Part shown: positions 1 to 64,000 of the stretch, one piece after another
Layout: each line of letters opens with the position of its first letter
Position numbering within the stretch: the first letter of the stretch is position 1
Source: Vulcanimicrobiota bacterium
Lineage (GTDB): Bacteria; Vulcanimicrobiota; Xenobia; Xenobiales; QWHO01
Direction: 5' to 3'
NCBI GenBank assembly: GCA_039809865.1
Contig: JBDHVW010000023.1
Location: 14,947 to 78,946, forward strand
Length of the DNA: 64,000 nucleotides
Notes under the pieces: generated by a model
The model's input: only the letters and a program-made list of their open reading frames with translations
The model's database searches: none
What the model was told of the DNA's origin: nothing
Translations under genes and position numbers: made by a program

Positions 1-1722
1 GCCGCTCGGGATGACCGAGATGCTGGCCTGCTCCAGGGTGCCGGTAGCGCTCGGCTTGGCGGTGGCGACCAGCGAGGCCTCGCTGAACGAGACGCTGCTG
101 TCGTCGGCCTGGCCGTCCACGATGGGCTTGTCGGACACGCGCAGCTCGTAGGAGCCCGCCTTGCCGCACCAGCCGTCGTCGCCGGTGGCGGTCCACTGGA
201 TGGTGGCGCCGTTGGCCTGGGCCGAGATGGCCTTCAGGTCGTTGGGGGCGGCCGGAGCGACCGAGTCGTTCTCCAGAGCGTTGGCCGCGTTCAGGCGGCC
301 GCCGCTCAGCACTTTGCCGTCGAGCTGGGCCAGCTTGTCCGAGCCGTTCATCAGGCGGGCTTTGATCTCTTCGTTGGTGGCATTGGGATAGGCGGCCGCG
401 ATCAGGCCGGCCACGCCGGTGACGTGCGGGGTGGCCATCGAGGTGCCGCTCATCGAGTCGTAGCTTCCCTTGGAAATGGGCACCGTCGAGAAGATGTCCA
501 CGCCGGGCGCGGCGATGTCCACCGTCTGGGCGCCGTAGCACGAGAAGTCGGCCAACTGGTCGTTGCGGTCCGTGGCGGCTACCGACACGTTGTTGGGCAT
601 GTCGTAGTTGGACGGATAGTGCGGGCTGGCGTCGTTGTCGGAGCCGGAGTTGCCGGCCGCCATGATGTGCAGGGCCGGGCTGTTCGTGAAGGCATCGGCA
701 ATGGCCTGATTGTACTGGCCGCCGCCCCAGCTGTTGCTGGTGATGCGCGCGCCCATCTGGGTGGCGTAGTTGATGCCGCGGATGATGGCGGCCGCATCGG
801 TCGACCCGCTGTCGGAGAAGATCTTGATCGGCATGATCGTGGCCTGCCAGTTCACGCCGACCACGCCCTGCCCGTTGTTGCCGTCGGCGGCGATGGTGCC
901 GGCCACGTGGCTGCCGTGGGAGTGGCCGTCCATCGGGTCGCCCGTGTTGGCCAGCGCGTTGTAGCCGTGCACGTCGTCGATCACGCCGTTGCCGTCGTTG
1001 TCGATGCCGTCTCCGGGGATCTCGCCGGGGTTGGTCCAGATGTTGTTCTTGAGGTCGGGGTGATTGTAGTCCGCACCCGTGTCGATGGTGGCGATCAACG
1101 GACCGCCGTTGGCGACCTTGGCGCCCGTGCTGACCGTCCAGGCCTCGGGAGCGTCGATGTCGGCGTCAGCCGTGCCGCTGTCCTGACCGGAGTTGTTCAG
1201 GCCCCACAGGCGGCTGTCGAGGTCGTTGGGAAGATTGACGTTCTCGTCCTTCGTGCCGGCTTTGCCGCCCTGAAGCGTGTAGGTGTGGTTGGGCACCACG
1301 TAGGCCACGCGCTCGTCCTTGGCCATCGCGGCCATCGCCTCGGCGGTGGACATCCCGGCCGGCAGCTGGAGCTGCACCAGCTCGCTGCCGTCGCCGCTCT
1401 TGAAGAGCGTGGGCAGGTTGAATTTGTGCAGGGTGGAGGCGCCGAAATCCTGGGCGAAGGCGTCGCTATCCATCAGGCCCGAGCCGCCCTTCAGCTTGAC
1501 GAGGACCTGGCCCTCGACGTGAGCTCCAAGCTTGTCCTCGAGCGAGGCCGCTTCGACCGCCACGGCGGCTTTCATGGCAGCCAGGTCATTGCGCGACGGG
1601 AGGCCGCTGGCCTCCACACTGGCGCCGCGGCCATCGGCCGGGGGCGCGCTCGAGGCCGGAGCGGCGCTCTGGGGACGGCTCAGGCTGCTGAGACCGACCT
1701 GCTGCTGTACTGACGAAATCAT
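1..1722 (-). CDS. Subtilisin-like serine peptidase (peptidase S8), 5' part only; C-terminus lies beyond the window start
   Basis: My own minus-strand translation from ATG at 1722..1720 (GGAGGA 7 nt upstream) gives MISSVQQQ... with the S8 catalytic triad motifs DTGADYNHPDL, HGSHVAGTIAA and SGTSMATPHVTGVAGL, followed by an Ig/FN3-like tail. The track ORF 424..1713 (+) is its GC-rich antisense. Confidence 0.85.
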   Translation of the reverse strand, partial: MISSVQQQVGLSSLSRPQSAAPASSAPPADGRGASVEASGLPSRNDLAAMKAAVAVEAASLEDKLGAHVEGQVLVKLKGGSGLMDSDAFAQDFGASTLHKFNLPTLFKSGDGSELVQLQLPAGMSTAEAMAAMAKDERVAYVVPNHTYTLQGGKAGTKDENVNLPNDLDSRLWGLNNSGQDSGTADADIDAPEAWTVSTGAKVANGGPLIATIDTGADYNHPDLKNNIWTNPGEIPGDGIDNDGNGVIDDVHGYNALANTGDPMDGHSHGSHVAGTIAADGNNGQGVVGVNWQATIMPIKIFSDSGSTDAAAIIRGINYATQMGARITSNSWGGGQYNQAIADAFTNSPALHIMAAGNSGSDNDASPHYPSNYDMPNNVSVAATDRNDQLADFSCYGAQTVDIAAPGVDIFSTVPISKGSYDSMSGTSMATPHVTGVAGLIAAAYPNATNEEIKARLMNGSDKLAQLDGKVLSGGRLNAANALENDSVAPAAPNDLKAISAQANGATIQWTATGDDGWCGKAGSYELRVSDKPIVDGQADDSSVSFSEASLVATAKPSATGTLEQASISVIPSG

Positions 1723-1810
1723 GGAAGTCCTCCCGCGTGTTTAAATCTGGCGGTATCCTAACCGCTCGGGAGGATCGGGTCGTAACAGACTTATGAACTT
1801 TAAGCTTTCT

Positions 1811-3292
1811 TTAAGTGTGTACCATGCGCAGGGCGCGCTTGCGGACGAGGTAAGAGAATCCCGCCACCACGGCGATGAGGAGCAGGTTCTCGACCAATCC
1901 GCCCAGGAAGCTGCAGGCGCCCAGCATCAGCAGCATCAGGCCCGCGTAACCGAGCGCGAAGGAGCCGGCCTGGGCCCGGCTGCGAGCCGTCGTGGAGGCC
2001 AACACGCCCAGATAGGCCGCGGCGTAGCAGGCGCCCAGCAGCCAGCAGTAGGCCGGCACAATGGCCAGCGGCGCCAGCGAGCCGAGCTCGAGGCTGACCA
2101 CCGCCGAGTAGAGCACCAGCAGCAGCAGCTCGCTGACGCGGTAGCGCCATCCAAAGGAGGCCCAGCCGTCGACGAACTCCTCGGCCGTCATCTGGGTCAG
2201 GGCCAGCGATTCGAGCGTGCGGCGCTCGCGCTCCTCGACCAGCGAGGTCGAGACGCTCATCGAAGCCATCAGGGGCTGCACCACGAAGAGCGCCGGGAAG
2301 GCGTACCAGGCGATCTCCAGGATATGCTGGGGGAGGAAGAACGCCAGGAGCGCCAGAGTGAGGAAAAACAGGCCGTGGTGGTAGAGGAACACGGTGAAAA
2401 CCCCGCCCCCGGCCAGCTTGCGGGCCAGGCGAGCGCTTTCGCGCACCACGATAGGGTTCTCGTTGAAAGGCGTCTGGGAGCCGTTGCTGCTCGGTTTGCG
2501 CGCCCCCTCCGGGATGGCCGGCGTGGAGTCGCCGCGCATCAGCCACTCCACCGCCAGCTGGCGGCAAGCCATCACGAACGAGAGCACCGCCAGGCCCATC
2601 AGGCAGAGCCCGAAGTCACCCCGGCTGGCCAGTCCGTAGACACCCAGCAAGAGGGAGCTCATGCCGAAAGTCACCGCGACCGGCGAGTCCATGTCGATGC
2701 GGTCGCACACGGCGCAGAGCAGGAAGATGTTGCAGGAGACCAGGTTGATGGCCAGGCAGACCAGATACCAGACCGCGGGCACGATGACCAGCAAAGTGGG
2801 CTCGAGCCGGCCTCCCTGCTGTACGTGCAGGACCAGCAAGCCAAACACCGCCAGGCTGAGGAGAGCCGAGCTCCTGGTGGCGGCGCGCAGGGAGAACATC
2901 GTCACCGAGTCGATCCACTGCGAGGAGGGCATCTTGGTGGTCAGAATCTCGTCGAGGCTGCGGCCGAAGCGCAGCATGCCGATGATGGATGCATCCTGAT
3001 AGGCGGAGAGGAACGGGTACACCAGCGTCACGATCGCGGCCGCGATCAACCACAGGTAAGCGCTGTGGGGGTAGAGGAAAGAAATTCCCGCGACGGCGGC
3101 GCTGGCCAGCACGGTGAGGAAGAGCGACCAGCTCCGGTATCGCCTGCGCGAAGGGCTGGACAACATCAAGGCCAGCGGTGGAGCTTCTTGCGCTTTCAAA
3201 GCGATCGCTTCAGGCACTCTGGGAAATTCGACCGATCGAGCCGAACGCCTTTCGGGCATGAAAAAACCGCCCCTCGCGAGGCGGATTTTCAA
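1811..3292 (-). CDS. Polytopic integral membrane protein of unknown function (about 10 hydrophobic segments)
   Basis: Track ORF 493 aa with many TM-like hydrophobic stretches and balanced composition, co-oriented upstream of the S8 peptidase. Start uncertain (alternative MPERRS at about 3259). The overlapping + ORF 1793..3328 is an R/G/H-rich antisense artefact. Confidence 0.55.
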   Translation of the reverse strand: MKIRLARGGFFMPERRSARSVEFPRVPEAIALKAQEAPPLALMLSSPSRRRYRSWSLFLTVLASAAVAGISFLYPHSAYLWLIAAAIVTLVYPFLSAYQDASIIGMLRFGRSLDEILTTKMPSSQWIDSVTMFSLRAATRSSALLSLAVFGLLVLHVQQGGRLEPTLLVIVPAVWYLVCLAINLVSCNIFLLCAVCDRIDMDSPVAVTFGMSSLLLGVYGLASRGDFGLCLMGLAVLSFVMACRQLAVEWLMRGDSTPAIPEGARKPSSNGSQTPFNENPIVVRESARLARKLAGGGVFTVFLYHHGLFFLTLALLAFFLPQHILEIAWYAFPALFVVQPLMASMSVSTSLVEERERRTLESLALTQMTAEEFVDGWASFGWRYRVSELLLLVLYSAVVSLELGSLAPLAIVPAYCWLLGACYAAAYLGVLASTTARSRAQAGSFALGYAGLMLLMLGACSFLGGLVENLLLIAVVAGFSYLVRKRALRMVHT

Positions 3293-14285: not shown

Positions 14286-14600
14286 GCCTCGGGTGGCTAA
14301 CTCAGGTTTGCATTAGCCGAGGTCTACCGGTTCATTGCTCTGGTGGCTGACCGGGGAATCTGCCTTTGTCGGGTCTCTTTCGTCGGCCGGTTTTGCTCGG
14401 GTGGCTGACTCAGATTTTGCCCTTTGGGTCGGTTTTCGTCGGCCCTTTGCTCGGGTGCTGACTCGGCTCGGGTGCTGACTCGGGTTTGCCTTTGTCGGCC
14501 GGTTTTGCTCGGGGGCTGACTCAGGGTTTGCCCTTTCGGGTCTGTTTTCGTCGGCCGTTCTGCTCCGGGTGTCTCGGGGGGCTGAGTCAGGGCCTGGTGG
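14286..14600. repeat. Degenerate tandem repeat array (about 5-6 copies of a 55-60 bp unit with core GCTCGGGTGGCTGACTCAG and TTTGCCCTTTGGGTCGGTTTTCGTCGGCC)
   Basis: Direct reading: the GCTGACTCAG / GGCTGAGTCAG cores recur at about 14399, 14452, 14470, 14510 and 14578, with conserved TTTTGCTCGGG spacers. Confidence 0.7.
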
Positions 14601-23796: not shown

Positions 23797-25590
23797 ATGA
23801 GCATAAGTTTGCAGTTCTGGCGCACGAAACGCGGTTTCGGGCTGGTGGTCGTGCTGGGCATCGCAGCCGTGCTGGCCATCTTCACCGGTGCTATCGGTGC
23901 CAACGCCGCCATGAACCTCCGCAGCGTCACGCACGAGAGCCAGACGGACCAGGCCCACTACGCGGCTTTCACGGGCATCCAGCTCTCGATGGCCTGTATC
24001 AAGGAGCCTCCGCCCGGACGTGAGGATTGGCTCGAAGTCGACCCCAGCATCGTCGTCCAACTGAGTGAGAACACCAGCTGCACCGCCCGCACCTATCACA
24101 ACCTCGAAGGCCTGGCGGGAGCGGTAGCGGTGGCCGACGATGGGACCAAAATCCCGGTCAACAACTTCTACATCGTGGCCGTTGGCACGGTGGCTCAGGC
24201 TGTCAGCGCCAGCAGCTCCTCGATGGGCGCCCTGGTGGCCCCCCTGTTCCCGCCCATCGACCACGCCGTCTTCGGTAATTCCGAGGTCCACGTGGCCGGG
24301 CTGGTCGACCACTTCAACTCCAACGACATGGGTACTGCTCCCGACCCGGACTGCACCGTGGCCCTGGCCCCGGTGGGAACCAACTCGATCAACCTCAGCG
24401 ATTTCGATCTCGGCCCGACCACGCACGTGGATGGGGACCTGCACCTGGGTGAAGGGGCGTCGGCCGCCGACGTCAGCGCTCTGGCCGGCGTCGCCGCCTC
24501 CGACATGGCGGGCGGCGGCGGCTCAACCACCACGGGTGGAATGACGAGCACGACGACCACCACGACGGGAACGACCACCGGGGCAACCACGGGAACCACG
24601 ACCGGAGCCACCACGGGCGCCGCAGCGTCCTCGGTCGACACCGGCACGATCTCGACGGGCACCGCCAGCAGCCTCCCGGCCCAGAAGCAGATGCCCAACC
24701 TCGCGGCGCCGACCGCCGCCAGCACCATCGTTCCCAGCACGGGCGGATTCAGCCTCAACGGCAGCCGCAGCTACGTCATCAACGGCAACCTGGTCCTGAA
24801 CAACGCAACCATCACGGTGAACGGCACCGGCAACGCGCTGCTGTTCGTCAACGGCAACATCAGCATCACCGACAGCCCCAACCTGACGGTTCCGATGCGC
24901 CCCGAGCGCCTCAAGATTTACTGCCTCGATCCCAACGGCACGTTCACCATGGTGAACAGCAAGGGCTACTTCGTGGTGGCCGGCAACGGGAACTTCAACG
25001 TCAACGTGGGTACCGATGCCGAGCTGTTCGGCGCCATCCTGGCCGATAAGGTCACTGTGAATGCGGGCAGCGCCGTGCACTTCGACGTGGCGCTGGCCGA
25101 CCCGACTCGCGTGGGCTCGGTCAGCGATTTCTTCATCACGGGTATCACCGCCGCCGGTGGTGAGGCCGTGCCGCACGCCGCCCTGATCGCTCCGGGAGCG
25201 CTGGCCGGAGGGGCTGGAACGGCCGCGGCCGCGACCGGAACGACCGGGACGACCGGGACGACCGGAACGACCACCGGGGCGGCCACGACCGGAACCGCCA
25301 CGACCGGAACCGCCACGACCGGAACCGCCACGACGGGAACGACGACCGGGGGCACCGGAATGACCGCCGGCGGGACCACCGGAATGACCTCTACCGCCGG
25401 GACCACCGGAACCACCGGGACCGCGACCACGGGAACGACCACAGGAACGGCCACCACCGGAACCGCGACGACCGGAACCGCCACCACCGGAACCGCCACC
25501 ACCGGCACGGCCACCACCGGAACCACCAGCACTTGCGGCTGCGGCTGCGGCTGTGGCGGCGGGAGCATGGCGATGGACATGGCCCTCTAG
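23797..25590 (+). CDS. Large pilin-like (GspK/PilX-type leader) secreted protein with Thr/Gly-rich repeats and C-terminal (Cys-Gly)4 tail
   Basis: ATG 23797 with GGAGGAGGGG 6 nt upstream. N-terminus MSISLQFWRTKRG|FGLVVVLGIAAVLAIF has a basic leader ending in Gly plus a hydrophobic helix and no Glu+5, as in GspK. Long TTTGATTG / TGTATTG runs. Ends ...TTSTCGCGCGCGGGSMAMDMAL. Confidence 0.6.
   Translation: MSISLQFWRTKRGFGLVVVLGIAAVLAIFTGAIGANAAMNLRSVTHESQTDQAHYAAFTGIQLSMACIKEPPPGREDWLEVDPSIVVQLSENTSCTARTYHNLEGLAGAVAVADDGTKIPVNNFYIVAVGTVAQAVSASSSSMGALVAPLFPPIDHAVFGNSEVHVAGLVDHFNSNDMGTAPDPDCTVALAPVGTNSINLSDFDLGPTTHVDGDLHLGEGASAADVSALAGVAASDMAGGGGSTTTGGMTSTTTTTTGTTTGATTGTTTGATTGAAASSVDTGTISTGTASSLPAQKQMPNLAAPTAASTIVPSTGGFSLNGSRSYVINGNLVLNNATITVNGTGNALLFVNGNISITDSPNLTVPMRPERLKIYCLDPNGTFTMVNSKGYFVVAGNGNFNVNVGTDAELFGAILADKVTVNAGSAVHFDVALADPTRVGSVSDFFITGITAAGGEAVPHAALIAPGALAGGAGTAAAATGTTGTTGTTGTTTGAATTGTATTGTATTGTATTGTTTGGTGMTAGGTTGMTSTAGTTGTTGTATTGTTTGTATTGTATTGTATTGTATTGTATTGTTSTCGCGCGCGGGSMAMDMAL
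25201..25562. repeat. Intragenic microsatellite-like tandem repeats: degenerate 15-bp ACCGGAACCGCCACG units and (TGCGGC)4
   Basis: Direct reading of 25260..25560. Encodes (TGTAT)n and CGCGCGCG. Confidence 0.7.
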
Positions 25591-37753: not shown

Positions 37754-37834
37754 ACAGCGACGACAGGAGCGGTCCACGAAACAGCGACGACAGGAGCGGT
37801 CCACGAAACAGCGACGACAGGAGCGGTCCACGGG
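37754..37834. repeat. 3 x 27-bp perfect/near-perfect direct tandem repeat (CAGCGACGACAGGAGCGGTCCACGAAA) in the hyuA / 37857-gene divergent intergenic region
   Basis: Read directly. Copies at 37754, 37781 and 37808 (third copy ends ...CACGGGT). Confidence 0.85.
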
Positions 37835-60368: not shown

Positions 60369-62438
60369 CTAAAAAACGCGCGATTTGCGGCGCACGGGCA
60401 GGGCCGCCCGCTGGCAGAAGAACTCCTGGGCGCTGAAACGCTCGCCGTGGGACCAGAGCCGCGTGTAGGTGCCGTCCTGATTCAGCTCCCACGAGCTGGC
60501 GTTGTCGCGCAGGTTGGCCAGCATGATCTCCTGCAGCTTCATCCCCAGATTGCCTGGCAGCGGCACCAGGGCTTCCACGCGCGACTGGAAGTTGCGGTTC
60601 ATCCAGTCGGCGCTGGAGATGAACGTGCGCGCCTCGGGCGCGGGCAGCTCGTGGCCGTTCGAGAAGCAATAGATCCGCGCGTGCTCGAGGAAGCGCCCCA
60701 CGATCGACTTCACCCGGATGTTGTCCGAGAGGCCCGGAACCTGGGGCCGAAGAGCACACTGCCCGCGCACCACCAGCTCGATCTGGACTCCGGCCTGGGA
60801 GGCGTCGTAAAGGGCGTCGATGACGTCCGGCTCCAGCAGGGCATTCATCTTGGCCCAGATGGCCGCCGGCTTGCCGGCGCGAGCCAGCTCGGCCTCGTGG
60901 TGGACGGCTGCGAGGAGCGTGGACTTGAGGTCGATGGGGGAGACGGCCACGCGCTCGAATTTGCCCGGCACCGCGTAGCCGGTGATGAAGTTGAAGACCC
61001 GCGCGGCGTCGCGGCACAGCTCACCGTTGCAGCTGAAAAGGCTGAGGTCGGAGTAGGCCCGGGCCGTCTCGGGATGGTAGTTGCCGGTGCCGTAGTGGAC
61101 ATAGGAGCGTAGCTCGCCGTCCTCTTTGCGCAGCACCAGGCTGACCTTGGCGTGGGTCTTGAGGTTGGCGAAGCCGTAGACCACCTGGGCGCCGGCCTGC
61201 TCGAGCACCTCGGCGAGCTTCATGTTGGCTTCCTCGTCGAAGCGCGCCTTGAGCTCCACCACGGCCACGACCGACTTGCCGGCCTCGGCGGCCTCCACCA
61301 GGGCTCGCACGATGGGGGAGTTGCGACTGGTCCGGTAGAGAGTTTGCTTGATGGCCACCACGTCGGGATCGGCGGCGGCCTGCTTGACGAACTCCACCAC
61401 CACCGAGAAGGACTCGTAGGGATGGTGCACCAGCAGATCGTGCTCGCGCATCGCCGAGAAGAAGTCGCCCGCCCACTCGGCCAGCGCGTCCGGGGTGCGG
61501 CCGTCGAAGGGGGCGTAGCGCAGCGGGGGCTCGCCGCTGCGAATCAGCTCGGACACGGCGCCCAGGTTCAGCATGCCGTCCGAGATCAGCATGTGCTCGG
61601 AGCTCGTCTCGAGCTGCTCGCAGAGATACTCGCGCACGACTTTGGGAGTGCTGGGGGCGACCACGAGGCGAATCACGCTGCCGCGTTTGCGGCCTTTGAG
61701 CGCCTCCCGGAACGCCTCGAGCAGGTCGCCCTCGCTGGGCTCGATCTCCATTTCCTGGTCGCGCAGGACGTGGAACAGGTTGACGCTCTGGACCTCGAAA
61801 TTGGGCAACAGGCGGTCCAGGAAGAGCGGGATGACCTCCTCCACCCGGATGTAGCGGTCGGAGGTCTTCAGCCGCACGAAGCGGGTCATCTTGGGCGGCA
61901 GCAAAACGAGCTGCCACTGGACGGTGGGGCTGTTCTTGAGCTGGATCACCAGGCACAGGCCATCGTTGGGAACCAGTGGGAACGGGTGGGCCGGGTCTAC
62001 CGCGACGGGCGAAAGCGCCGGCAGGATCTGGGCCTCGAAATGGCCTTCGAGCCAGTTCAACTCAGCTCGGGTCAGCTCGTCGTGGGTCAGGATGCGGATT
62101 CCCTGGCCTGCCAGCACGCCTTTGAGCTCCTGCCACACGCTTTGCTGGCGCGCGAACAAGGCTCCGGCCTCCTGGCGGAGAAGCTTGACGTGCCGGGGCA
62201 GGCGCAGGCCGTCCGGCGAGCGCGTGCGGGCGCCCGACTCGTACTGGGTCAGGAGGCTCGCGAACCGAACCATGAAGAATTCGTCGAGGTTGGAATCGGA
62301 GATGGACAGAAAGCGCAGGCGCTCGAACAGCGGGGTCTCGGGGTCGCGCGCGAGCTCGAGCACCCGCTCGTTGAAAGCGAGCCAGCTCAGCTCCCGGTTC
62401 AGAAATCGCTCGGGTTTTTGGCGTAAGGTCGTGGTCAT
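60369..62438 (-). CDS. ppk: Polyphosphate kinase 1
   Basis: 689 aa. N-terminus MTTTLRQKPERFLNRELSWLAFNERVLELA and PLD-like duplicated catalytic halves are typical of PPK1. Confidence 0.95.
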   Translation of the reverse strand: MTTTLRQKPERFLNRELSWLAFNERVLELARDPETPLFERLRFLSISDSNLDEFFMVRFASLLTQYESGARTRSPDGLRLPRHVKLLRQEAGALFARQQSVWQELKGVLAGQGIRILTHDELTRAELNWLEGHFEAQILPALSPVAVDPAHPFPLVPNDGLCLVIQLKNSPTVQWQLVLLPPKMTRFVRLKTSDRYIRVEEVIPLFLDRLLPNFEVQSVNLFHVLRDQEMEIEPSEGDLLEAFREALKGRKRGSVIRLVVAPSTPKVVREYLCEQLETSSEHMLISDGMLNLGAVSELIRSGEPPLRYAPFDGRTPDALAEWAGDFFSAMREHDLLVHHPYESFSVVVEFVKQAAADPDVVAIKQTLYRTSRNSPIVRALVEAAEAGKSVVAVVELKARFDEEANMKLAEVLEQAGAQVVYGFANLKTHAKVSLVLRKEDGELRSYVHYGTGNYHPETARAYSDLSLFSCNGELCRDAARVFNFITGYAVPGKFERVAVSPIDLKSTLLAAVHHEAELARAGKPAAIWAKMNALLEPDVIDALYDASQAGVQIELVVRGQCALRPQVPGLSDNIRVKSIVGRFLEHARIYCFSNGHELPAPEARTFISSADWMNRNFQSRVEALVPLPGNLGMKLQEIMLANLRDNASSWELNQDGTYTRLWSHGERFSAQEFFCQRAALPVRRKSRVF

Positions 62439-62660
62439 ATGTTGAGGTGCCTGGAGGGCAAGATAACCGGTTTCGAGTCCGGCGGCAAGCGTCTTCGCCT
62501 TGGCGAGGACAAGATCCGCGTCGGCCGCGACCTGCGCGAGGCCCTGGCCTGGGAGGGCGTGGTCGGCGTGCAGTGCCGGGTGTGGGTTCGCGAGACCCGC
62601 AAAGGATTGAAGCTCGTGTGGGTGATCCCGCTGGAGCCCTGCGTGAGGCCGTCGCGTGCG

Positions 62661-62846
62661 ATGGTGTGCATGGGCAAGTCCTGTCGCAAACGGGGGGCTG
62701 GCAAGACTGTCACAGCCTTAGAGGACGCGGGGTTGGCGGTCAAGTGCGTCAAGTGCCTGGACCGCTGCGGAGAAGGACCCAACGTGGTCCTGCTGCCAGG
62801 CAAAGTTTTGGTGACCGACGTCCGCGGAGTGAGGAGTAGGGAGTAG
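62661..62846 (+). CDS. Thioredoxin-like [2Fe-2S] ferredoxin-type small protein
   Basis: Cys pattern CMGKSC...CVKCLDRCGEGPNVVLLPGKV resembles thioredoxin-like ferredoxins. The track ORF start 62439 would abut the ppk start codon with zero spacer, so the internal ATG 62661 (GAGG 12 nt upstream) is preferred. The start is uncertain. Confidence 0.45.
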   Translation: MVCMGKSCRKRGAGKTVTALEDAGLAVKCVKCLDRCGEGPNVVLLPGKVLVTDVRGVRSRE

Positions 62847-62884
62847 GGGAGATGGGAGATGGGAGTAGGGAGATGGGAGAAGGT
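62829..62884. repeat. GGGAGAT/GGGAGTA heptamer-type repeat block (left arm of inverted repeat)
   Basis: GTGAGGAGTAGGGAGTAGGGGAGATGGGAGATGGGAGTAGGGAGATGGGAGAAGG read directly. Confidence 0.8.
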
Positions 62885-62901
62885 TCAATAGGAGCATCTG
62901 G

Positions 62902-63291
62902 TCATAACTGCGTTTTGACTTTCTGACTCAGACCTCGAATCAGGCGCCGAACTTCCACTATAGAGTTGCTAGTCGCTGCAATATCCGGTTCTCTGAGGTA
63001 TTCTAGCTGCACGGCAACCTCCAGGAGCGTGTCCAGTTCGGCCAGGCTGCCCCGTGCGATACTCAGATGACTTAGAAACGGTTTCGGGAGTTCACGGGCT
63101 TGGCCTTCGGCGATGTTTGCCGGCACTGATATGGCAGCTCTTTGAATCTGGCTGGCCAGGCCAAAACGCTCTTCACGAGGGAGTTGGTTGGTAAGTTTAT
63201 AGACCCTCGTAACGAGTCCCATAGCTCTTTGCCAGACGATCAATTCCCTGTAACTCCGAGTCTTATCTTGACCCCCCGTCCCCTCTCCCAT
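62902..63291 (-). CDS. Four-helix-bundle protein (TIGR02436 / 23S rRNA intervening-sequence protein family)
   Basis: ELIVWQRAMGLVTRVYKLTNQLPREERFGLASQIQRAAISVPANIAEGQAR is the family hallmark. Confidence 0.8.
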   Translation of the reverse strand: MGEGTGGQDKTRSYRELIVWQRAMGLVTRVYKLTNQLPREERFGLASQIQRAAISVPANIAEGQARELPKPFLSHLSIARGSLAELDTLLEVAVQLEYLREPDIAATSNSIVEVRRLIRGLSQKVKTQL

Positions 63292-63314
63292 CTCCTAACT
63301 CCCATCTCCCATCT
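63279..63314. repeat. Right arm of inverted repeat (CCCCTCTCCCATCTCCTAACTCCCATCTCCCATCT)
   Basis: Reverse complement of the left-arm heptamer repeats. Confidence 0.8.
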
Positions 63315-63766
63315 TAAACTCGTTCGAGCAACTTCGGGTCCAGCACCCACCGGAGCCGGCCGTCGTCAATGCGAATGACGCCGCCTTTCTTGAGCTCGAT
63401 GGGGCTGCGGCCGTTGGGACCGAAGGAGAGGAGGCTGCCGAGCTCGCTCAGGGTGGGCTCGTGGCCGACCACGACCGCGACCGGGTATTTCAAAGACTCG
63501 ACCATCGTCGCGATGGCGCCCAGGCCGCCGTCGTAAAGGACGCGGTCCTGCACCAGGCCGGCCTTCAGGCCGATGCGCTCGTGCAAGATCTGGGCCGTCT
63601 CCAGAGCGCGCGGGGCGGGGCTGCTGACCATGCGAGCGTCCTCTAGAAACGGCTTGAGATAGCGCGCCAGGAGGCGCGTGCGCTCCCGGCCGGCCTCGGT
63701 GAGACGACGTTCGAAGTCGGGAAAGCCGTCCTCGGCCTGCGCGTGACGCACCAGGTAGAGCTTCAC
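63314..63766 (-). CDS. sixA: Phosphohistidine phosphatase SixA (histidine phosphatase superfamily)
   Basis: MKLYLVRHAQAE catalytic RHG motif. 150 aa. Confidence 0.8.
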   Translation of the reverse strand: MKLYLVRHAQAEDGFPDFERRLTEAGRERTRLLARYLKPFLEDARMVSSPAPRALETAQILHERIGLKAGLVQDRVLYDGGLGAIATMVESLKYPVAVVVGHEPTLSELGSLLSFGPNGRSPIELKKGGVIRIDDGRLRWVLDPKLLERV

Positions 63767-63767
63767 T

Positions 63768-64000
63768 TCAGGATGCCTTGAAGGCGACCTGGACGGGAAC
63801 GCCCAGCGCTTCGTTCAAAATGGCGAGGCTGGGCTGCACGGCCCAGCGCTCGAGCAACAGGTCACCCGGTCCCTCCAGCTTGAGCAGCAAGGCGCCCTTG
63901 GCCTTGCGGGCCTTGACCGAGCGGATCTGACCGCGATGCTCGGCATCCAGCGCCTCGGCCAGGCGCAGCAGCGACGACAACTTTTGACAGAGCGTCTTCT
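63768..64000 (-). CDS. 3' end of a gene running off the window; possibly exopolyphosphatase Ppx/GppA C-terminus
   Basis: Open minus-strand frame continues to the window edge (..KTLCQKLSSLLRLAEALDAEHRGQIRSV..). The stop abuts the sixA start. Ppx assignment is based only on the ppk/sixA neighbourhood and weak C-terminal similarity. Confidence 0.35.
   Translation of the reverse strand, partial: KTLCQKLSSLLRLAEALDAEHRGQIRSVKARKAKGALLLKLEGPGDLLLERWAVQPSLAILNEALGVPVQVAFKAS

Follow-up and report, generated by a model that had tools for sequence, protein, structure and literature searches.

A gene for a 129-amino-acid four-helix-bundle (4HB) protein was found in a 64,000-nucleotide stretch of Vulcanimicrobiota bacterium DNA (contig JBDHVW010000023.1 of assembly GCA_039809865.1; the whole stretch is referred to as the window). 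The gene lies between two convergent protein genes, sixA and a ferredoxin-like open reading frame (ORF), and is bracketed by inverted arrays of a G-rich heptamer. This locus raises the question of whether the gene and its arrays form a unit and, if so, a unit of what kind. We consider it reasonably probable that they constitute a 4HB cassette of the type known as 23S rRNA intervening sequences, which in this case lies outside rRNA and was inserted at the stop-codon junction of sixA and the ferredoxin-like ORF.

An insert at the sixA/ferredoxin-like junction

The same ppx-sixA/ferredoxin-like-ppk neighborhood was present in two related loci, L372 and L373, whose SixA proteins are 75% and 61% identical, respectively, to that of the window. 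In both relatives, sixA and the ferredoxin-like ORF are directly convergent, with stop codons that overlap (CTAG) in L372 and lie 6 nt apart in L373, and 4HB genes and heptamer arrays are absent from both loci. Protein alignments showed that the C termini of both neighbors are changed in the window. The ferredoxin-like tail departs after VRG and runs into the left array (VRSRE, then stop), and SixA ends with a single residue (V) after LLER, which makes it shorter than the relatives' proteins ending in LLEKAAR and LLERGGS. The GC content falls from about 0.66 outside to 0.50 to 0.55 inside the segment. The empty sites of the relatives and the altered C termini of the neighbors thus demonstrate that about 490 bp, with ends approximate to within a few bases, was inserted at the junction, and this segment now provides the stop codons of both genes. 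The first-pass annotation of this DNA had taken the arrangement for an integrated mini-element, and the empty sites bear this out; it had also considered that relatives might carry the 4HB gene here without the repeats, and the two relatives were found to lack both.

The insert and its immediate neighbors comprise the following features (window coordinates):

62439 to 62846, plus strand: ferredoxin-like ORF; no Pfam or NCBIfam match; conserved Cys77, Cys82, Cys106, and Cys110
62826 to 62883: left heptamer array with GGAGTGA, GGAGTAG, GGGAGAT, and GGGAGTA units, delimited by Tandem Repeats Finder and a direct-repeat family
62829 to 63320: inserted segment of about 490 bp (left arm, spacer, 4HB ORF, and right arm), delimited by the empty sites of L372 and L373, the C termini of the neighbors, and the GC dip
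62884 to 62901: spacer of 18 nt separating the 4HB stop codon from the left arm, read from the sequence
62902 to 63291, minus strand: 4HB gene, matching the PF05635 and TIGR02436 profiles; all family-invariant residues are kept
63279 to 63314: right heptamer array (Tandem Repeats Finder; period 7, 5.1 copies)
63299 to 63303, minus strand: Shine-Dalgarno-like GGGAG, 7 nt upstream of the 4HB ATG, read from the sequence
63314 to 63766, minus strand: sixA-like histidine phosphatase gene, on the same strand as the 4HB ORF and immediately upstream of it

The 4HB ORF matched PF05635 (23S_rRNA_IVP; E value of 8.4e-36; 122.9 bits against a cutoff of 33.8; residues 15 to 119 of 129) and TIGR02436 (E value of 8.5e-34; 116.1 bits against a cutoff of 24). 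Together with the ORF positions, these matches confirmed the first-pass assignment of a TIGR02436 gene between convergent ferredoxin-like (plus-strand) and sixA (minus-strand) genes. The RxxxSxxxNxxE motif (PMC3936711) is represented by R51, S55, N59, and E62, which are invariant or nearly so in an alignment of 24 sequences. The nearest solved structures by sequence homology were XCC0516 (PDB 2GSC; E value of 1.4e-23) and the BT_0352-like protein 2RLD (E value of 1.7e-7).

Tandem Repeats Finder detected the left array at 62833 to 62883 (period 7, 7.1 copies), and the direct-repeat family stretches it out to 62826. This array is G-rich on the plus strand and thus appears in the 4HB transcript as its C-rich 3′ arm, while the reverse complement of the right array, GATGGGAGATGGGAGTTAGGAGATGGGAGAGGGG, is the G-rich 5′ arm of that transcript. 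The best inverted pair consists of 62850 to 62883 and 63281 to 63314 (34 nt, 91% complementary), as expected from the inverted GGGAGAT/GGGAGTA arms that had been described in the first pass. At up to one mismatch, the 12-mer GGGAGATGGGAG occurs five times in the 64 kb, always at this locus, compared to an expectation of 0.64, and 0 of 100 shuffles reached five. The arms had been estimated at about 56 bp on the left and 36 bp on the right and had been said to overlap the stop codons of both neighbors. The right value stands, whereas the left arm measures 51 to 58 nt; the overlap is real on the left, where the array supplies the final codons and the TAG stop (62844 to 62846) of the ferredoxin-like ORF, whereas the right arm abuts the sixA TAA stop and touches it by one base only. 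On its inner side, the right array covers the first 13 nt of the 4HB ORF, so that the Shine-Dalgarno-like GGGAG and the ATG (63291 to 63289), neither of which had been mentioned before, both lie within the arm.

Nine contigs from different sequencing runs (L001, L002, and L004 to L010) end at one base, at approximately 62852, inside the left array. This common end suggests that the assembly graph branches there, which might result from a heptamer copy number that varies within the population or from further copies with the same k-mer.

Inverted heptamer arms across the protein family

The same architecture was sought in a sample of 126 homologue loci (80 metagenome contigs and 46 viral contigs) encoding proteins 30 to 52% identical to the 4HB protein of the window. 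Flanks were scored by local alignment of the sequence upstream of the gene with the reverse complement of the downstream sequence, and 428 pairs of the same geometry, shifted by 1.2 to 2.4 kb within the same loci, served as controls. An inverted flank score of at least 14 was reached by 62% of 111 unique homologue loci and by none of the 428 controls; direct repeats were seen at 8%. The window locus itself scored 26.5. When arrays were defined by period-7 self-similarity at 18 or more of 21 positions, they were present, among the 115 genes with both flanks available, in 36% of the upstream flanks and 30% of the downstream flanks, and 45% of the genes had one in at least one flank, compared to 1 to 2% of the controls. 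Periods of 5, 6, 8, and 9 were found in only 1 to 2%. Both arms carried the same heptamer at 31 of the 34 loci with an array in each flank, while the unit itself varied widely from locus to locus (CAGTTCA, GGCAAGA, GTGGTGA, GTGAACG, GGGGTCA, AAGGCAG, and others). Most arrays started no more than about 8 nt from the stop codon and ended at the start of the ORF; the aligned arms had a median length of 31 nt and typically comprised four to five units. The 4HB gene was lower in GC than its flanks at 99 of 104 loci (median difference of −7 points), and the arms had a consistent G-arm-to-C-arm polarity, with the trinucleotide AGT in 28 units and ACT in 1. Inverted heptamer arms around the gene are therefore the norm for this protein family.

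Arms resembling those of the window recurred with and without a 4HB gene, as the first-pass proposal of an element present in other copies had anticipated. GGGAGTA-type arms surround 4HB genes 41 to 43% identical to that of the window at three independent loci (L230, L077, and L113), and the closest homologues (61 to 67% identical; L378 to L380) have GGGAGAC, GGGAGAT, or GGGAGTA arms beside different host genes. A hairpin of about 40 nt lies outside each heptamer arm of L378 (positions 100 to 165 and 600 to 650) and L380 (positions 1 to 45 and 530 to 585). Within each of these two loci the outer hairpins have related sequences (CCCAATGCCCCTGAATTA... and AATGCCCATTACTTAA...) and form an outer layer of inverted symmetry.

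Replicons of cultured organisms provided further examples. Plasmid pNPUN02 of Nostoc punctiforme PCC 73102 (L383) carries a complete cassette with GTCAGGA arms, while pCC7120alpha of Nostoc PCC 7120 has the 3′ arm only, the 5′ side adjoining a transposase gene. In plasmid 1 of Gemmatirosa kalamazoonensis (L382), a C-rich CTCCTGC array follows the 4HB ORF directly, and the place of an abutting G-arm on the upstream side is taken by a complete hairpin with a short loop, built from this heptamer. This gene-less GGCAGGA/CTCCTGC hairpin (positions 440 to 515) lies about 60 nt upstream of the 4HB gene, and one G-arm could pair with either of two C-arms. In a Planctomycetes protein from a metagenome-assembled genome (P0055, 223 amino acids), the 4HB ORF continues for about 100 residues through the downstream tandem repeat and ends in a repetitive tail (SLSASHSP...RLNSERRTPN).

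The heptamer was found to follow the protein clade. For cassette pairs in unrelated flanking contexts, with up to one mismatch allowed, the heptamer was shared by 13 of 22 pairs at a protein identity of at least 60%, by 11% at 50 to 60%, by 4% at 40 to 50%, and by 1.5% below 40%. Arrays standing apart from a gene behaved similarly: of 43 other period-7 arrays at least 260 nt away from a cassette, 25 use the heptamer of the local cassette (2.0 ± 1.3 expected). At L379, a second G-arm/C-arm pair directly after an intact cassette (positions 1184 to 1296) encloses eight codons only (MTRGYRDS, then stop). The pair represents an internally deleted cassette, which indicates that heptamer hairpins without a gene can derive from cassettes. 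On the IMG/VR viral contig L363 (positions 297 to 3128), an AACGTTG/ACGTTCA array recurs in most intergenic regions, around a tandem pair of 4HB genes, and at each end of a tandem duplication of 224 bp.

At least 119 loci with four GGGAGWW units were obtained in a genome scan; hosts among the matches listed include cyanobacteria, Anaerolineae, Acidobacteriota, Gemmatimonadota, Planctomycetota, and others. Such arrays had been considered as markers of 4HB genes, an idea that was rejected: among the loci listed, a 4HB gene is adjacent at L230 only, 4HB genes are distant or weak at L140 and L196, and almost none of the loci has one in the 8 kb retrieved around the match. The association goes from the gene to the arrays and not from the arrays to the gene. 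Many gene-less GGGAGWW loci are short-loop hairpins in which an array is followed by a spacer of 20 to 150 nt and the inverted array. Among 27 paired arrays in other genomes, the G-arm precedes the C-arm in 24 and follows it in 3; the cassette of the window has the same prevailing polarity, an order that reads identically from either strand. Nested palindromes of several heptamer arrays (GGGAGTA, GGGAATA, GGCAAGA, and their complements) were observed in the cyanobacterial loci L224, L214, and L164. Those of L224 and L214 surround a common noncoding core (...CCCTCCTGGGAGGGGTTAGGGGTGGGT...), a similar motif occurs in L164 in the opposite orientation, and together they look like a gene-less repeat family.

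The possibility that the G-arm-to-C-arm polarity arises because the arms give stop codons to incoming genes was also considered. Inward stop triplets were present in 23 of 71 units, compared to 26.5 expected, and this explanation was discarded; stop triplets are instead enriched on the complementary strand of the heptamer units (31 compared to 14 expected). Long frames running toward a cassette tend to end at the outer edge of an arm (median gap of 0 nt; 60 of 91 within −45 to +10 nt), an observation that is only suggestive, as it is based on crude ORF calls.

RNA structure, expression, and competing explanations

The arms of the window locus pair in minimum-free-energy and centroid RNA folds of both strands, in line with the long stem-loop envisaged in the first pass. 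The fold of the minus strand, which is the sense of the 4HB mRNA, had a free energy of −199.3 kcal/mol (z = −4.39), and the plus-strand fold had a z score of −2.93. In the predicted fold of the mRNA sense, the ribosome-binding site and the AUG of the 4HB gene are base-paired inside the stem. The further suggestion that the stem-loop terminates both convergent transcripts found no specific support: the region from 62400 to 63800 contains 0 terminator-like sites and no U-tract on either strand. Likewise, a preference of cassettes for convergent sites, as expected of bidirectional terminators, was not borne out. By crude ORF calls, the cassettes occupy co-directional intergenic sites at 53 loci, convergent ones at 15, and divergent ones at 12, with no strong preference, and a general role in terminating convergent genes thus gains no support. 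No Rfam match was obtained for 62600 to 63500, and the locus scan found no sigma-70-like promoter. No promoter was detectable, and only 22 nt separate the 4HB ATG from the stop codon of the co-directional sixA gene upstream; transcripts reading through from ppx-sixA are thus probably the simplest source of 4HB expression.

On these grounds, we propose a cassette that would work as follows. The compact unit of about 490 bp, consisting of a G-rich heptamer arm, the 4HB ORF, and the complementary C-rich heptamer arm, would be transcribed by read-through from ppx-sixA. Pairing of the arms in the read-through RNA would create a stem of about 35 bp, in which the ribosome-binding site and the AUG would be hidden. 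By analogy with the 23S rRNA intervening sequences, this stem may be a substrate of RNase III, whose cleavage would release the cassette RNA from the host mRNA. Arms and ORF would move together and be passed on as a unit, and internal deletion of cassettes would give rise to heptamer hairpins without a gene. The physical coupling of 4HB genes and arrays, with the gene usually bracketed by the arms, the heptamer following the clade, and nearby gene-less arrays using the same unit, gives a concrete hypothesis for the protein: we infer that it most likely acts on the heptamer arrays themselves.

Several points weigh against this proposal. Transcription, RNase III cleavage, and translation of the cassette are proposals drawn from sequence. 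Mismatches in the arms are G-U-compatible on the mRNA strand about as often as on the opposite strand (79 compared to 77; P = 0.94), and without a G-U excess on the mRNA strand, nothing points to selection for pairing at the level of mRNA rather than DNA. The upstream neighbor is co-directional in 50 cases and opposed in 40 across the family, which is not significant (crude ORF calls), so read-through expression is no general rule. The correspondence of heptamer and protein clade could be explained by shared host ancestry instead of joint mobility. Moreover, the cassette encodes no recombinase, no target-site duplication was identifiable at this locus, where the junctions are too diverged from those of L372 and L373, and no second array pair was seen in the roughly 74 kb covered for this genome, namely the 64-kb window and a further 10 kb next to it.

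Some of the same observations would fit a trans-acting repeat-binding protein, in which a 4HB pentamer binds tandem heptamers genome-wide for regulation, RNA processing, or array maintenance, and in which its own arrays are autoregulatory sites and not the ends of a mobile element. Avd, a 4HB homologue, binds RNA and reverse transcriptase in diversity-generating retroelements, which speaks for such an activity. So do the excess of gene-less arrays matching the local cassette, the presence of AACGTTG in nearly every intergenic region of L363, the covariation of heptamer and clade, and the typical arm of four to five units alongside the pentameric homologue 2GSC (five chains; PMC4990558). On its own, however, this explanation does not account for the insertion relative to empty sites, the lower GC content, or the ORFs in rRNA intervening sequences; the binding itself is hypothetical, and no other array was found in the approximately 74 kb. 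We regard it as possible rather than probable, and it is compatible with the cassette explanation rather than exclusive of it. A bolder reading, which we think unlikely, is that 4HB pentamers are the specificity factor of an unrecognized mobile system made of protein and repeat. Each 4HB clade would then be specific for one heptamer, whose arrays it would propagate or maintain, and the abundant arrays and hairpins that lack a gene in cyanobacteria, Xanthomonas, Planctomycetota, Acidobacteriota, and other groups would represent footprints or targets of cassettes.

The first-pass annotation had compared the element to a miniature inverted-repeat transposable element (MITE), that is, a nonautonomous transposon whose arms would be the terminal inverted repeats for a transposase encoded elsewhere, with the 4HB ORF as a passenger. 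The inverted termini, small size, intergenic insertion, and empty site in relatives would suit this label, as would the arm pairs without a gene. The ORF is intact, however, and the arms are tandem heptamers that change from clade to clade around a cargo that remains homologous, the reverse of what a terminus recognized by a transposase would show; no target-site duplication could be defined here, and we know of no transposase family that uses tandem-heptamer ends. The label fits poorly, and we consider such an origin quite improbable. Mere coincidence, with an ordinary 4HB gene happening to sit between two common intergenic hairpins, could draw on the wide spread of GGGAGWW arrays, most of which, among the matches listed, lack a 4HB gene in the 8 kb retrieved around them, and on the convergent heptamer pairs known in Xanthomonas (PMC4692102). 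It is strongly disfavored, and in our view very improbable, given the inverted flanks that accompany 62% of 4HB genes and none of the 428 control positions, the identical heptamer in both arms at 31 of 34 loci, the arrays abutting the ORF ends, and the empty site in relatives. Finally, the gene might be thought to encode the Avd accessory protein of a diversity-generating retroelement, with weak matches to bAvd (PF22296; 30.4 bits) and DivGenRetAVD (NF033474; 34.5 bits). Both scores fall below the curated cutoffs (40 and 80, respectively), the genes called over the 10 kb that follow sixA include no reverse transcriptase, and no template/variable repeat pair was found here, which leaves this identification hardly credible.

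The cassette resides in a neighborhood composed of ppk, the ferredoxin-like ORF, sixA, ppx, and a poly(A) polymerase gene. At 62436 to 62441, ppk on the minus strand meets the plus-strand ferredoxin-like ORF head-to-head. Their start codons abut directly (CAT followed by ATG), which leaves zero intergenic space for promoters, and this abutment is kept in the relatives (L372, 4832/4833; L373, 4717/4718). Although it has no Pfam or NCBIfam match, the ferredoxin-like ORF is 73% identical to the copies of the relatives and shares four invariant cysteines with them. Further tandem repeats in the window are a 56-nt unit repeated 3.7 times (14361 to 14569), a ACCACCGGAACCGCC-like repeat block with periods of 9, 15, and 27 nt (25228 to 25562), and a perfect 27-nt unit repeated 2.9 times (37754 to 37832).

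Comparison with known systems

TIGR02436/PF05635 is a very large family (at least 4443 hits in one search). Its members reportedly first came to notice in 1993, in rRNA intervening sequences of Leptospira, and we know of no function assigned to them since. Besides Coxiella, 23S rRNA intervening sequences with an S23p/4HB ORF have been reported for Leptospira, Brucella, and Xanthomonas. The intervening sequence in the 23S rRNA of Coxiella burnetii comprises 428 nt, has a terminal inverted-repeat stem of 28 bp that is cut by RNase III, contains an S23p ORF with a variable number of tandem GACAGAT units at its 5′ end, and is regarded as selfish (PMC4990558). The window element resembles it in length (about 430 to 490 nt for the two), in a stem of about 28 to 35 bp, in the PF05635 ORF within the loop, in the tandem heptamers beside the start codon (three copies of GACAGAT there and 5.1 copies here), and in the location of the ribosome-binding region in the stem. 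In contrast to the Coxiella element, it lies between the stop codons of two convergent protein genes and not in helix 25 or 45 of 23S rRNA, its heptamer is GGGAGAT/GGGAGTA, and cutting by RNase III, known for Coxiella, is only proposed here. PF05635 genes have also been noted inside cas loci (PMC3936711, PMC10910872) and in rRNA insertions of bacteria of the candidate phyla radiation, in both cases as uncharacterized genes. Together with the present loci, this suggests that the intervening sequences of rRNA represent one special form of a more general cassette, which can land at many intergenic sites, including sites within operons and cas loci.

Intergenic heptamer repeats, on the other hand, have been described for Xanthomonas (GGGAATC; 186 sites with 70 convergent pairs) and Nostoc [GGGGA(C/T)T] (PMC4692102) as well as for Beggiatoaceae (TAACTGA; PMC4679880), and heptamers are reported, without an explanation, to constitute the most abundant class of long simple-sequence repeats in most bacterial genomes surveyed (PMC4692102, PMC4679880). 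As in the repeats of Xanthomonas, Nostoc and other cyanobacteria, and Beggiatoaceae, which are G-rich, tandem, intergenic, often in convergent pairs, and of the same G-arm-to-C-arm polarity, the arrays of the window are tandem, intergenic, located on opposite strands, and convergent, as in the convergent G-rich heptamer pairs of Rehm et al. (2015). Those repeats were described without a gene between the arrays, whereas the arms of the window enclose the 4HB ORF, and a search of the texts of PMC4692102 and PMC4679880 for the terms S23p and 4HB found no mention of these genes. Likewise, no description of the heptamer-arm architecture as a family-wide feature outside rRNA was found in the literature searched, whose coverage was incomplete. 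Within that coverage, the coupling of 4HB genes and heptamers outside rRNA appears to be new, while the Coxiella intervening sequence and gene-less heptamer arrays were already known. If 4HB proteins were indeed specificity factors, the function of the proteins from rRNA intervening sequences would be linked with the overrepresentation of heptamers in bacterial genomes. Examples of the cassette are available in cultured organisms, in complete form in N. punctiforme PCC 73102 and as partial or variant forms in Nostoc PCC 7120 and G. kalamazoonensis.

The window protein shares sequence homology and the RxxxSxxxNxxE motif with the pentamers XCC0516 (2GSC) and BT_0352-like (2RLD); these are known as structures alone, and a homopentamer is predicted for the window protein by homology. 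Avd, a pentameric partner of nucleic acid and reverse transcriptase (PMC10053308), belongs to the same fold family, but the window protein scores below the Avd model cutoff, and no reverse transcriptase or template and variable repeats were seen here. MITEs and repetitive extragenic palindromic (REP)-type elements are likewise small intergenic inserts with inverted-repeat ends and gene-less derivatives, whereas the window element has clade-variable tandem heptamers as arms and an intact 129-amino-acid ORF, with no target-site duplication or cognate transposase identified. Thus, the window element is not an Avd gene and is a poor fit to a MITE; it has the anatomy of an intervening sequence without the rRNA location that defines one.

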